A stretch of 64,000 nt of DNA from positions 20,528-84,527 of the forward strand of contig SUYQ01000003.1 of NCBI GenBank assembly GCA_015060325.1, read 5' to 3'. Source of the stretch: Bacteroidales bacterium. GTDB lineage: Bacteria; Bacteroidota; Bacteroidia; Bacteroidales; UBA932. A program made the position numbers and the translations under genes. Below, in pieces: positions 47,682 to 57,071 of this stretch (the stretch's first letter is position 1; each line of letters opens with the position of its first letter). The notes beneath the pieces were generated by a model. The model did not search any database and was not told the origin of the DNA. It saw only the letters and a program-made list of their open reading frames with translations.

Positions 47682-48704
47682 TTATTCGTACTCCGTAATC
47701 TTCAACCGGTATTTATTGCTACCCAGATTCTGAAAATACCGGGGAACGTCCTGCATCTCCTGTCCGATAATCCCGGTCATCCCCGACCTGACAGTTCCGG
47801 TCATCCCCGGTTTGACATCCCCCGTCATCCCCGGCTTGACCGGGGATCTCCTCCACTGCCCGTCAACACAGAACAGCACCGGATCCTTCACGCCCTCAAG
47901 TTTAAACCCAAGCTGCTCATATACAGCGCCTTCTGACCACTCCAAGTCAGCGTAGCTCATCACATCATCCGGATGCACATCATCTATAAAAGCCTTGAGC
48001 ATCTTGCCCATGCCGCCATTGATCCTCACGCCAGGGAGGGATGCATACCGTGTCCATTCATAAGACCGTATCGTCTTCTCCCCCTTCTGCCACTTTCGGG
48101 CATTGGAAAACGTAGCCACCGCCACCAGACTCCCCGGCTCTACCCAACTGTCATTTCGAGCAAGCGAGTCCACACTGCCATTTCGAACAATCGAGTCCCC
48201 ACGGTCATTTCGAGCGAGAGAGCCTACACTGTCATTTCGAGCGAGCGAAGCGAGTCGAGAAATCTCCAGCCACCTGCCAGTATACCGCTTCAAATACAGC
48301 CCATACCGATACCGGCACGCAGCATCACCATAGCTATGATTTTCACTCAGGAATGCCGCCGCAGTCTCCTTATCGATCTTCCTTACCTCGCAATTGCGGG
48401 CATACATCGATATGAAGATCTCGAGATGCGCCAAAAGCCTGGCTTTCATCATTTCCGGCTGACGCCTCCAGCGATCTTCAGTGATGATCACTGCTGCTGA
48501 TCCTTCTTGACTCAAAACAGCCAGCAAATTATTGATAGTTCTTGCATCCTCGCGAGCCTGCTCCTCATTTTCAGCCTGGACATCCCACGGCACCACACAC
48601 TTCCGTCCTACACTCAGCACTTCCACCCCGCAGCGGGCTTCCGCCACACAGTCAAACGCGTTAGCACAAAGAAAATCACGTATTTCGTCTGCCAAAAGAG
48701 TCAT
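47682..48704 (-). CDS. Hef/Mom-like GNAT-fold protein with a degenerate Vsr/DUF559-like N-terminus and two in-frame repeat insertions
   Basis: [68 protein letters not shown]. Start MTLLAD lies 5 nt after a TAATTTTG box (48710-48717). Confidence 0.65.
47776..47849 (+). repeat. Palindrome GTCATCCCCGGCTTGACCGGGGATCT with two further 24-bp half-copies, in frame within the CDS
   Basis: GTCATCCCCG at 47776, 47800 and 47824; encodes VKPGMTG repeats. Confidence 0.93.
48146..48265 (+). repeat. Palindrome CACTGTCATTTCGAGCGAGCGAAGCGAGTCGAGAAATCT with three further 27-bp half-copies, in frame within the CDS
   Basis: Units at 48146, 48173, 48200 and 48227; 120 nt = 40 codons (SLARNDS repeats). Confidence 0.93.
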
Positions 48705-48917
48705 GACCGCAAAATTACACAAAATCTTCGTTTGCCGTTGTATTTGCAGACAAATCCTGCAATCTGTGGCACAGAAAAAATTGAAAATCAGGCAATTGCC
48801 TAGCACTGCGTGCTCCCCTTTGGCGGCACGCAAATGTAGCTATACACCTAACACACAACGAATTACGCGCCACTCTCATTTATATAGTCATCCAACCCTT
48901 TGACCACCAACAACTTG

Positions 48918-48955
48918 ACTACCAACACGGTGGGTCATTTTGCCCCACCGTGTTG
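48918..48955. repeat. Hairpin CAACACGGTGGG-TCATTTTGC-CCCACCGTGTTG; 48918-48949 is a perfect inverted copy of 51191-51222
   Basis: Direct comparison of the two positions. Confidence 0.9.
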
Positions 48956-49058
48956 ATAGTTAATGCGCTGACCGATAGCGCTTTATGTGTCCATCAGATT
49001 GTAGGCATTTCGTTCATCTGGACATTTAGTGGGAGAGATTGGGAAATCAAGTTCAATA

Positions 49059-49185
49059 GTGAACATTTCGGGTGGCAGGGAAGGCAACAGCCAGGCGCGA
49101 GGAGAGCCCTTCAAGGGTAGGGCTCCCCGCAGCGCTTGAGCTGTAGTCGTCGGAGAACGTATATTCCGACGACGGTGCCGTGCAT
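49059..49185 (+). ncRNA. Repeated structured element (predicted four-way junction), copy 1
   Basis: Near-identical to 50948-51074 and to the reverse complement of 59892-59993; four stems predicted by eye. Whether it acts as RNA or DNA is unknown. Confidence 0.45.
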
Positions 49186-49336
49186 ATCGGTATGTAGGCC
49201 ACGATAGACCAATGATACCGGATGGGCAATATTACACATGACAGCGCAATACAACGCGTTAACTGTCAACCACTTACGTCTTTATTATGACATCAAAGCG
49301 CACGGTATCAACAATATAACATCCTGATACTCAGAC

Positions 49337-49750
49337 AGTTATATTGCGCAACCGATGAGACATTTAATATGAAAGAAGCTGACAGCAAGGGAGGTTGAAT
49401 CCTTGTTGTCAGCTTCATGTTATCAGTTCATGTTGCCTGATCATGTTACTTGATCATGTTGCCAGCTCCTGGTGCGAGCTTCATGTTTTTGCAGAACGGT
49501 ATGTTCTAGAAAGACTGGAATGTCGACCATTTCGTGTTGGCCTCGGCTGCTGTCTCAACGCCATCCGGAAGATTCACGAAGAAGTCAAATCCGGTCCAGG
49601 ACTCGATCTGGTCTACTGAGACTGCGTAGTTTGTGTAGGAATCCGAGTAGGTCTTATGCTCGAACCAGAAACCTATAGCACTTACACCCGGCAGTTCAAG
49701 CCAGGACTTGCCAGACACAGCCGGCAGCTGTGCAGCGACAGTCGTGAATG
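49337..49750 (-). repeat. Diverged direct duplicate of 51770-52067 plus 52626-52700 (nuclease 3' end, terminator and downstream flank)
   Basis: Shared CAGTTATATTGCGCAACCGATGAGACATT and AAGAAGCTGACAGCAAGG hairpin; homologous coding segments. Confidence 0.92.
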
Positions 49751-55721: not shown

Positions 55722-55753
55722 CTTTACTTTCCTTTTAGTTGTTTGACTTACTA

Positions 55754-55909
55754 CTATTCGAACCAGTTATTGTTACCGGTTTCCCAATCTTGTGCATCGA
55801 AATCTCCCGATGCACACAGCACTCCTTCGCTCAAAACTTCGAGCGTTTTTACGGAAGGGGTTTCGTATGCTGAAACCTCTCCCATGAATTGTTTCCTTTC
55901 TAGGGTCAT
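55754..55909 (-). CDS. 51-aa small protein, MTLERKQFMGEVSAYETPSVKTLEVLSEGVLCASGDFDAQDWETGNNNWFE
   Basis: Manual translation; ends TAG-TAG-TAA; lies between the TAAATTTG box (55991-55998) and the fimbrillin gene. Confidence 0.75.
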   Translation of the reverse strand: MTLERKQFMGEVSAYETPSVKTLEVLSEGVLCASGDFDAQDWETGNNNWFE

Positions 55910-55990
55910 AATTAATTGATATTTAGTTTGTTAATATTTTCTACACACATTCCACGCGCGCATCGCATGCACAACGCGCACATTAAGCGG

Positions 55991-55998
55991 CAAATTTA
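55991..55998 (-). promoter_or_regulatory. -7 box of the sORF-fimbrillin-nuclease unit
   Basis: TAAATTTGC on minus. Confidence 0.65.
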
Positions 55999-56084
55999 GA
56001 CTATAAATTCCTGATAATCAAGAAAAATCTCCGATAGTTGAAAAACTTTCGGAGATGTCACATAATATGGCACATAGACCGGTA

Positions 56085-57071
56085 TTATTCTGCAAGATAT
56101 TTTTTAAACGAAATCCAGTCGGACGCAGTCTCAGAAACCGTCTCTATCGGGTCAGGCAGACCGGCAAAAAGATCGAGTCCAGTGAGCTTTTCAATATCGT
56201 CGACGGTGACCGTGAATTCAGAATACGAATGTCCCTTGAGGTCTTCGTGTGGGAGAAGAAATCCTATGGTCCTGGCCTCAACCACCCCATCACTTCCCCG
56301 CTCAACCTTAAGCAGAGCCTTCCAATAGCTTTCGGGCACAGGAAGAGTCTTGGAGTCGTTCTTATTGACTATGGTCCTGACGGCACTGAGCTCATCACCC
56401 TGAGAGAAAATGGCTCCCGTCACGACATAGAGCGTATCTTCCGGAGGCACTGCTGAGCGCACCGCTTCCTCCAGTTTAGCCCATATCCCTCCGTTGAATC
56501 CATGCTGGATCTGAGGAGTCATGTTTGTCGAAAAATAGGTCTGAGCCTGCATTTCAGGGACTGCACTGCGGTCTGCATTCGGGATCTGGTGGCCTCGGGC
56601 ATAGAAGTTCTTCGGGTAGTTTGCAGTCGGGACAGATACGCCATAGCCGCTGCGTACATTGGTCTGGATGACCCTGGAAAGCTGCGGATCATACCCCCAG
56701 GTCTCCTCACGTCCCTTGGATGTGTGCGCGCTGCAGAGAGGATATGCCACCCAATGGGCCGCATACAGGTCCTGGTCGTAACAGAGGGTGTAGTTGCGCT
56801 GGAGCGTTCCATTCATATGCGCTCTATGGGTCACGATATGACATCCCTCCATATCCCCCTTTCCCTGAGGCAGTTCCAGCCAGTCAGGAGTTCCGGGGCC
56901 AGCAGATGACGCCATAGCCTTGCGAGCCTTTCCGGCTCCGTCGTCAGACGGACCGTTCCCGGCATCCTGGGCAGAAGCCGATTGTGACTTGCTGCCAAAT
57001 ACGACAAAAAGCAGCAACACCAGGCTCAGGCCTAGTATCACTGCTATAGTTATTCTGGTACTTTTCTTCAT
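56085..57071 (-). CDS. Membrane-anchored DNA/RNA non-specific endonuclease
   Basis: N-terminal TM helix; NYTLCYD..AAHWVAY, YARGHQIPNAD, YFSTNMTPQ..FNGGIWAKLE. Confidence 0.93.
   Translation of the reverse strand: MKKSTRITIAVILGLSLVLLLFVVFGSKSQSASAQDAGNGPSDDGAGKARKAMASSAGPGTPDWLELPQGKGDMEGCHIVTHRAHMNGTLQRNYTLCYDQDLYAAHWVAYPLCSAHTSKGREETWGYDPQLSRVIQTNVRSGYGVSVPTANYPKNFYARGHQIPNADRSAVPEMQAQTYFSTNMTPQIQHGFNGGIWAKLEEAVRSAVPPEDTLYVVTGAIFSQGDELSAVRTIVNKNDSKTLPVPESYWKALLKVERGSDGVVEARTIGFLLPHEDLKGHSYSEFTVTVDDIEKLTGLDLFAGLPDPIETVSETASDWISFKKYLAE

Follow-up and report, generated by a model that had tools for sequence, protein, structure and literature searches.

To our knowledge, programmed read-through of stop codons is held to be in essence a viral and eukaryotic phenomenon, save for selenocysteine incorporation and a few phage genes. 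In described systems that depend on a structure 3' of the stop (retroviral gag-pol, the UGA with stem-loop of alphaviruses and coltiviruses, Drosophila and mammalian genes, and A1 of phage Qbeta), a leaky stop, mostly UGA, is followed from 5-8 nucleotides (nt) downstream by a stable structure, a conserved in-frame extension encodes a functional domain that equips a structural protein with an enzymatic or accessory function, and the ratio of long to short product is fixed and low. Here, we analyzed a 64,000-nt stretch of a Bacteroidales genome (contig SUYQ01000003.1, positions 20,528 to 84,527; hereafter, the window) and describe a locus on its minus strand, at 47.6-57.1 kilobases (kb), in which a surface-type lipoprotein gene is separated from a nuclease module in the same frame by a single UGA codon with a hairpin shortly behind it. 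We propose, with moderate confidence, that the nuclease is made by programmed, hairpin-stimulated read-through of this stop, so that a surface adhesin would have a minor isoform that ends in a nuclease tip. The gene would then resemble the known systems in all the above respects, the low ratio of long to short product being proposed here from sequence. In contrast to the viral and eukaryotic examples, it belongs to a chromosomal gene family of Bacteroidales, its structure is a simple GC hairpin within a Gly/Ser linker with no conserved context at +4 to +9, and the same junction and cargo occur on many unrelated upstream proteins.

Three further groups of systems share parts of this design. Bacterial selenoprotein genes, which rely on a UGA, a selenocysteine insertion sequence (SECIS) and SelB, likewise have an in-frame UGA with a hairpin within about 10 nt, inside the coding sequence; the present family differs from them in its UAG variants, an unconserved apical loop, a site in a flexible linker and the absence of homologues with Cys. 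Exported nucleases of the Endonuclease_NS family (PF01223; Serratia NucA, Anabaena NucA and streptococcal surface nucleases) share the RGH, N and E motifs with the module described here. These enzymes and the Bacteroides ddb nucleases reach the extracellular space via Sec or lipoprotein signals and likely serve DNA scavenging and biofilm or matrix remodelling, whereas the nuclease of the window gene lacks such a signal, and ribosomes coming from the adhesin-like lipoprotein must pass a stop codon to reach it. Unlike ddbABCDEF (PMC12478041, PMC8851478), the gene has no adjacent TonB-dependent transporter. Polymorphic toxin loci with orphan C-terminal cassettes (contact-dependent inhibition and Rhs systems; PMC3482391) are alike in their displaced, truncated 3' copy, exchange junction and nuclease cargo. 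In the window family, however, the polarity is reversed, with a constant C-terminal nuclease and a variable N-terminal carrier, there is neither an immunity gene nor delivery machinery, and the orphan occurs in only two genomes. We found this arrangement described nowhere in the literature searched; the papers nearest to it treat in-frame stops in prokaryotes (PMC7918605), bacterial UGA-reading tRNAs (PMC13092985), Bacteroidales DNA-utilisation loci (PMC12478041) and selenium utilisation in bacteria (PMC5029168).

The in-frame stop and its hairpin

The lipoprotein open reading frame (ORF; 904 amino acids (aa), 53010-55721), the TGA at 53007-53009, which is the proposed recoding site, and the following 372 codons (51888-53006) form one reading frame; the junction reads ...YKLQ-stop-PSSGGGVGGDEPAVGATVTTTTVTNIEQTGASLSASYTEASSEPTEVGFR. 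These and all other genes and signals named below lie on the minus strand, and repeat segments are given without a strand. An earlier annotation made from the letters and translated ORFs (the sequence-only reading) had correctly recorded an in-frame UGA between a pilin and an endonuclease but left it uninterpreted, although it is the conserved, defining feature of the gene and not a local nonsense mutation. The segment 52980-53627 recurred without one difference in contigs of four independent faecal metagenomes. Together with more than 100 independent assemblies, these metagenomes rule out an assembly or sequencing error as the source of the TGA. A change of genetic code, with UGA read as sense, was likewise ruled out, since TGA closes 10 of the 42 long ORFs, and a search of the window for a second stop-bridged ORF pair found none. 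Because its share among these ORF ends is just 10 of 42, TGA is an ordinary stop here that is over-represented at the junctions.

The first relative with the same design was found in an Alistipes metagenome-assembled genome (MAG; L010, L-numbers denoting the related loci and contigs compared), which reads ...KKLAIN-TGA-DSSGGSAGGEEPAA-FN3-nuclease in a single frame. With the nuclease module as query and each species represented by one genome, a scan returned 80 loci, in which each module without its own signal peptide has one in-frame stop on its 5' side, preceded by a same-frame ORF of 430-1060 aa. A second scan, with the exact 29-nt junction as query, added 53 Bacteroidales loci, which have the same layout throughout, and 17 other hits, which were rejected as chance matches in high-GC genomes devoid of bridging ORFs. 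All 49 ORFs of at least 200 aa behind the junction had a match to the nuclease module, the most divergent sharing 31% identity with that of the window. No other cargo was found behind the junction; the lone 556-aa ORF without a nuclease match sits in an unrelated high-GC MAG and is a chance motif hit. De-replication left 82 distinct genes from Cryptobacteroides, Tidjanibacter, Alistipes and other Bacteroidales, with TGA at the junction in 80, TAG in two and TAA in none. The two TAG users are the related MAGs L033 (position 5992) and L034 (position 3510), which carry the same hairpin and whose downstream parts show a ratio of nonsynonymous to synonymous substitution rates (dN/dS) of 0.078.

In comparisons of different species, identity reaches 95-100% over the 30-41 nt of the junction but 70-80% on the nuclease side, and the lipoprotein side is often unalignable. 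Metatranscriptome contigs of other communities cross the junction with the TGA intact and with differing sequences on both sides. Editing of the stop was rejected because the TGA is retained in these RNA contigs, a weak argument as contigs hide rare variants. Frameshifting or bypass is unneeded, both parts being in one frame, and no conserved slippery or take-off sequence lies upstream. Several MAGs hold at least two stop-bridged genes with different upstream proteins (L109/L158, L114/L159, L146/L156, L107/L142 and L110/L117), and in L090 two of them, one per strand, lie no more than 8.5 kb apart. The metagenome word depth over 52899-53145 rises to 4-5 times the value of the flanking gene, and high-depth contigs join the junction to other sequences; this fits a community in which many genes carry the same junction.

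The sequence following the stop in the window, UGA-CCAUCAU-CCGGCG-GAGG-CGUCGG, contains a hairpin (52984-52999) that starts 7 nt after the stop and is our candidate stimulator of read-through. Hairpins of this type (type A) have a 6-base-pair stem whose pairs are all formed (100%) across 26 distinct sequences, with G-C/G-U changes as well as compensatory changes at two pairs (CG/GC, AU). None of 500 shuffles reached the observed covariation score, and slid registers paired at only 31-69%. A different, longer hairpin occurs in the Alistipes type, with 17 pairs from 5 nt after the UGA and compensatory changes at four of them, and two further lineages have hairpins of their own, one reading CCGGAGG-CGGAA-CCUCCGG and the other (type C) having 13 pairs. 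Type C alone was 94% paired, which is not significant with four sequences, and types C and D were misaligned when aligned jointly and gave no useful consensus. Apical loops differ (GAGG, GGGG, GCGG, GUGG and ACAG; 5-8 nt in the other types).

Folding energies pointed to the same site. The 54 nt past the stop have a mean of -22 kcal/mol, compared with -8 to -10 kcal/mol at eight other positions in the same ORFs, and the junction is more stable than synonymous recodings, with mean z values of -2.0 and -1.6 compared with about 0 elsewhere. When the hairpin motif was searched without specifying a stop, all 43 occurrences in Bacteroidales had TGA nine bases upstream and none had a sense codon. Uninterrupted lipoprotein-nuclease fusions, in turn, have no hairpin of similar strength before the nuclease domain (-15.1 versus -24.7 kcal/mol, p 7.5e-7). 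An intrinsic terminator was rejected for this hairpin, which has no U-tract and gave a negative terminator scan, and Rfam searches of the junction and the repeats returned no match at the gathering threshold or at E<=1.

The extension consists of the Gly/Ser linker PSSGGGVGGDEPA, an FN3-like domain (about 52674-52964) and an Endonuclease_NS domain (about 51945-52604; Pfam E 1e-42) in which the RGH, N and E motifs are intact. The two window proteins with this domain, the second being a standalone nuclease treated below, scored 146.8 and 148.9 bits (cut-off 23), and their catalytic motifs read SRGHMIPNA...TNSVPQ...NLE and ARGHQIPNA...TNMTPQ...KLE. No downstream ORF has a hydrophobic N-terminal segment or signal peptide. 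The first ATG after the stop lies at a median of codon 77 among stop-bridged genes and at codon 173 in the window; in short forms, the first possible start is often at or past WLELP, the onset of the nuclease domain. Amino acid conservation begins with the first codon after the stop (xSSGGGxGG(D/E)EP), and pairwise dN/dS of the downstream ORFs is 0.08-0.31, with 0.23 for the window and L014. Judged by dN/dS, starts and signals, the downstream ORF appears to be translated, yet unable to stand alone; left in the cytoplasm for want of an export signal, a non-specific nuclease would serve no purpose or do harm. Lipoprotein-linker-nuclease proteins with no interruption occur in other Alistipes and related MAGs, indicating that the fused architecture is a real protein, and in L075, L078 and L085 the upstream domain has homologues in the same position of the stop-bridged L051 and L054.

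We favor read-through because of the conserved in-frame stop, the covarying hairpin, the lack of an own start and signal, the purifying selection and the uninterrupted fusions. Several points weigh against it. The 82 genes are related by descent at the junction and hence are not 82 independent observations. The window junction alone is no more stable than dinucleotide shuffles (z -0.26), and the short 6-base-pair stem is composed of codons that readily pair with each other, those for Gly (GGN) and for Ser/Ala/Val (NCC/GYC). There is no conservation of the base that follows the stop (C 17, A 15, T 13, G 8), so there is no classic leaky tetranucleotide context. Finally, the case for read-through is built from genome comparisons only, and we know of no demonstration of hairpin-stimulated read-through for chromosomal genes of Bacteroidota.

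Upstream lipoproteins and local recombination

The window lipoprotein starts with MKKIVLLLGMAAAMVNFAGC, and its lipoprotein signal ends in the lipobox FAGC. The earlier label of pilin was a fair one, as the fimbrillin-like Mfa_like_1 (PF13149) matched at 46.5 bits, above the cut-off of 27 (E 6e-12); the protein also has Ig-like Big_3 domains (Pfam) and a ricin-B-like region. AlphaFold predicted a C-terminal beta-trefoil (aa 751-904; 53010-53471) with a pLDDT of 95.8, for which Foldseek returned beta-trefoil lectins (HA33/ricin-B) at TM scores of 0.6-0.68. By these features, the lipoprotein appears to be an adhesin-like surface protein, presumably exposed to the outside. The beta-trefoil is also 57-75% identical to modules in Clostridia MAGs (Oscillospiraceae, Faecousia and Pseudoflavonifractor; L001-L009), with 60-75% for those of large cell-wall proteins, and one carrier is a 2229-aa SLH-anchored protein. 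This suggests that the domain moved between phyla.

A lipoprotein signal stands at the start of all 74 complete upstream ORFs. These are otherwise unrelated, with domain sets comprising Fn3_assoc/CHB_HEX_C_1, BACON, Big_2/3 and fn3. The syntenic site consists of tRNA-His, oadA (80-95% identical), in some cases the standalone nuclease, a small ORF and the bridged gene. At this site, related species carry wholly different N-terminal lipoproteins on the same junction and nuclease module, bearing out the mosaicism anticipated by the sequence-only reading. The window lipoprotein is itself a mosaic, its first 400 aa resembling L109 and its beta-trefoil resembling L017, L037 and L112. We lean, if only slightly, towards regarding the stop, hairpin, Gly/Ser linker and nuclease as a portable recoding cassette, present throughout this lineage of gut and rumen Bacteroidales, that sits on dozens of unrelated surface lipoproteins and in which hairpin-stimulated UGA or UAG read-through would set the share of each adhesin that bears a nuclease tip.

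The sequence-only reading had given a different account, a variable surface-nuclease island whose adhesin and nuclease modules are shuffled by local recombination; in the form weighed here, an Rpn gene and repeats would aid the shuffling and the UGA would be incidental. Of the alternatives to read-through, this one fares best. The N-terminal lipoprotein mosaic is species-specific at the syntenic site, and the conserved 30-41-nt junction could serve as a homologous cross-over point. Downstream of the nuclease, the 3' flank (50948-51868) holds repeat units of 253/303 nt, three in number, followed by a structured dispersed repeat. Beyond it lie a gene for an Rpn-family PD-(D/E)XK protein and putative transposase (320 aa, 49804-50766; PDDEXK_2 162.4 bits, cut-off 27.4, E 1.8e-47; TIGR01784 103 bits, cut-off 52.1, E 2.3e-29), an orphan nuclease tip of 86 codons (49506-49766) and a second copy of the nuclease 3' flank with the structured dispersed repeat (49059-49421, of which 49059-49185 is the dispersed repeat). 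The orphan tip derives from the nuclease gene by an internal deletion, joins the equivalents of 52627-52704 and 51868-52070 and misses the catalytic core; with the second 3' flank, it forms a direct duplication bracketing the Rpn gene. L014 has an Rpn copy, 90% identical, in the same place, and its relation to the window is crossed. The 3' end and short 3' untranslated region (3'UTR) variant of the window main gene match the L014 orphan (87%), and the window orphan bears the long 3'UTR variant of the L014 main gene. This pattern is best read as a past 3'-end replacement, with the displaced copy left downstream of the Rpn-containing insert; the orphan tip is probably the displaced former 3' end of the nuclease gene.

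However, shuffling addresses the evolution of the gene and not its expression, leaving the conserved in-frame stop, the covariation of the hairpin and the missing start and signal unaccounted for. Among the related loci, this Rpn gene and the orphan tip recur only in L014, the nearest relative. No recombinase ORF lies in 47-57 kb, nor does an integrase-like one, whose absence the earlier annotation had stated. Nor was any invertible-segment geometry found, the large repeats around the Rpn gene being direct, and the metagenome contigs contained neither an inverted form nor any other alternative arrangement of the main gene. Two observations support the proposed island, namely the N-terminal mosaicism and the swap of main and orphan 3' ends relative to L014; a recombinase or inverted-repeat geometry for programmed local shuffling did not materialize, and neither did co-occurrence of all parts. 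The downstream repeats, Rpn gene and orphan tip are best read as a lineage-specific recombination scar rather than a working shuffling device, and we regard the island as an unlikely explanation of the locus.

All ORFs and repeats that the sequence-only reading had listed are present on the minus strand within 47-57 kb, as placed, but its grouping of nine parts into one system broke down on comparison: the Mom-like ORF was absent from all of about 160 related loci, and the Rpn gene and orphan tip were shared with L014 only. The functional unit is the small ORF and the recoded lipoprotein-nuclease gene, often with the standalone nuclease adjoining. This standalone DNA/RNA non-specific endonuclease (328 aa, 56085-57071; Pfam Endonuclease_NS E 2.2e-43) has intact RGH, N and E motifs and an N-terminal hydrophobic signal anchor, in agreement with its earlier description as membrane-anchored, and orthologues with 57-68% identity adjoin the stop-bridged gene in L015, L016 and L021. 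The small ORF (51 codons, 55754-55909) lies 30 nt 5' of the lipoprotein gene. It was matched by tblastn in 11 loci, seven of them distinct, always just 5' of the lipoprotein gene, and belongs to no family found by Pfam and NCBIfam searches. Its core, YETPxVxTL(D/E)VLSEGVLCxS with an acidic tail, is seen in the window, L014, L016, L017, L020, L021, L109 and L158. A candidate promoter motif, TAnnTTTG (TAAATTTG, 55991-55998), was read off the sequence 5' of the small ORF; from established knowledge of Bacteroides promoters, we take it to be the Bacteroidetes -7 motif. The intergenic region between oadA and the standalone nuclease is filled by a 20-nt tandem repeat (57109-57200).

The ORF at 47682-48704, previously described as a Mom-like GNAT gene, gave no profile hit as it stands. 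After removal of a repeat insertion, it matched Mom (PF25680, a family of adenine-modifying, GNAT-like proteins) over 78 of 202 profile positions with 18.9 bits, below the cut-off of 27.1; the Mom-like label stems from this sub-threshold hit. It contains in-frame 27-nt and 24-nt tandem repeats (47772-47840 and 48147-48248) that encode the runs 'SLARNDS...' and 'KPGMTGD...'; the 27-nt unit recurs at 47559-47612, where it is part of the stretch that lies in frame 5' of the start codon (ATG) of purC. The C terminus of the Rpn protein (49905-50013) is likewise encoded by tandem repeats, 12-nt EGRA and 24-nt EGREKGLA units that cause spurious FliH and Yae1 matches. About eight other species have divergent Rpn genes (25-36% identity with that of the window) less than 6 kb away from the bridged gene (L023, L033, L034, L091, L096, L113, L120 and L124), and Rpn genes have a high genomic background in Bacteroidales. 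No small conserved ORF that could be an immunity candidate was found behind the nuclease or the orphan.

The structured dispersed repeat is about 130 nt long, has two strong hairpins (z -4.1 versus shuffles) and occurs at 49059-49185, 50948-51074 and about 59892-59994, as well as in L014; it had no match in Rfam. Metagenome depth at 50923-51169 is about 10-fold that of the flanks, indicating that the repeat is multi-copy in the genome or the community. Each of the 253/303-nt units (51136-51814; also 48887-49001) carries the hairpin ACACGGUGGGUCAUUUUGCCCCACC (GGUGGG..CCCACC), and an inverted, perfectly palindromic copy with 23-nt arms lies at 48915-48963. The unit looks like a miniature inverted-repeat transposable element or a repetitive extragenic palindromic element.

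Other routes to the nuclease

A further alternative, which we consider very improbable, invokes a dedicated decoding factor: either selenocysteine insertion guided by a SECIS-like hairpin or a suppressor tRNA of the host or a phage, so that the nuclease isoform would appear only where the factor is present. UGA accounts for 80 of the 82 stops, and bacterial SECIS elements have the same layout of a UGA with a hairpin shortly after it. Suppressor tRNAs are carried by some Bacteroidales phages. Two conserved genes under strong purifying selection nevertheless use UAG (L033 and L034), the apical loops vary in sequence and length, and the site falls in a Gly/Ser linker and not in a redox centre. 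Uninterrupted homologues have Gly or Ser and no Cys at the position matching the stop. With a suppressor tRNA, the hairpin would be unnecessary. A more exotic variant of the portable-cassette reading, in which read-through answers the suppressor tRNAs of code-switching phages, appears very improbable.

We give equally little weight to complete termination at the UGA, after which the nuclease would either arise from re-initiation or an internal non-canonical start, or be an untranslated, decaying remnant. Gene callers do split the gene at the stop, in-frame stops usually mark pseudogenes, and a GTG lies 13 codons past the stop in the window. However, decay is excluded by the dN/dS of 0.08-0.31 reported above. 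As to a separate start, the first possible one is unconserved and often falls inside or past the onset of the nuclease domain, amino acid conservation sets in with the codon next to the stop, and the frame is preserved across linkers of varying length. Moreover, a signal-less non-specific nuclease made in this way would remain in the cytoplasm, and no inhibitor gene was seen.

Proposed mechanism and significance

Under hairpin-stimulated read-through, the promoter would drive the small ORF and the lipoprotein gene, and most ribosomes would terminate at the UGA (53007-53009), releasing the 904-aa adhesin-like lipoprotein. With the UGA in the A site, the hairpin 7 nt past the stop would sit at the mRNA entry channel, a placement that we infer from the known spacing of recoding stimulators. 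There it may allow a fraction of ribosomes to decode the stop with a near-cognate tRNA while staying in frame. Ribosomes that continue would add the Gly/Ser linker, the FN3-like domain and the Endonuclease_NS domain. The long isoform would use the lipoprotein signal of the short form, being exported and displayed on the cell surface or on vesicles, such that the nuclease is tethered to a binding scaffold and a small, fixed share of the surface protein carries it. The occurrence and efficiency of read-through, the amino acid inserted, the surface exposure and the physiological role are all what we infer from the features described above.

The likely purpose is a low, tethered dosing of a dangerous enzyme for scavenging or clearing extracellular DNA or RNA. 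The sequence-only reading had also proposed degradation of extracellular DNA. Breakdown of nucleic acids outside the cell is the natural function in view of the exported type of non-specific nuclease, the signal anchor of the standalone enzyme and the adhesin-like lipoprotein partner. Such a role also fits published knowledge of Bacteroides extracellular nucleases (PMC12478041, PMC8851478).

If true, this would be the first widespread structure-stimulated stop read-through in bacterial chromosomal genes besides selenocysteine. It would extend programmed read-through to the cell biology of abundant gut and rumen bacteria, with a simple, testable cis-element, and would constitute a new way by which cells limit the surface dose of a dangerous enzyme. 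Such genes are split or dropped by annotation pipelines, and the nuclease shows up as a signal-less orphan ORF or a pseudogene; surface nuclease capacity is for this reason under-counted in Rikenellaceae and Cryptobacteroides. Together, these findings suggest how Bacteroidales may tether small, controlled amounts of nuclease to diverse scaffolds, which would be relevant to extracellular DNA turnover in the gut, the biofilm matrix and vesicle cargo.

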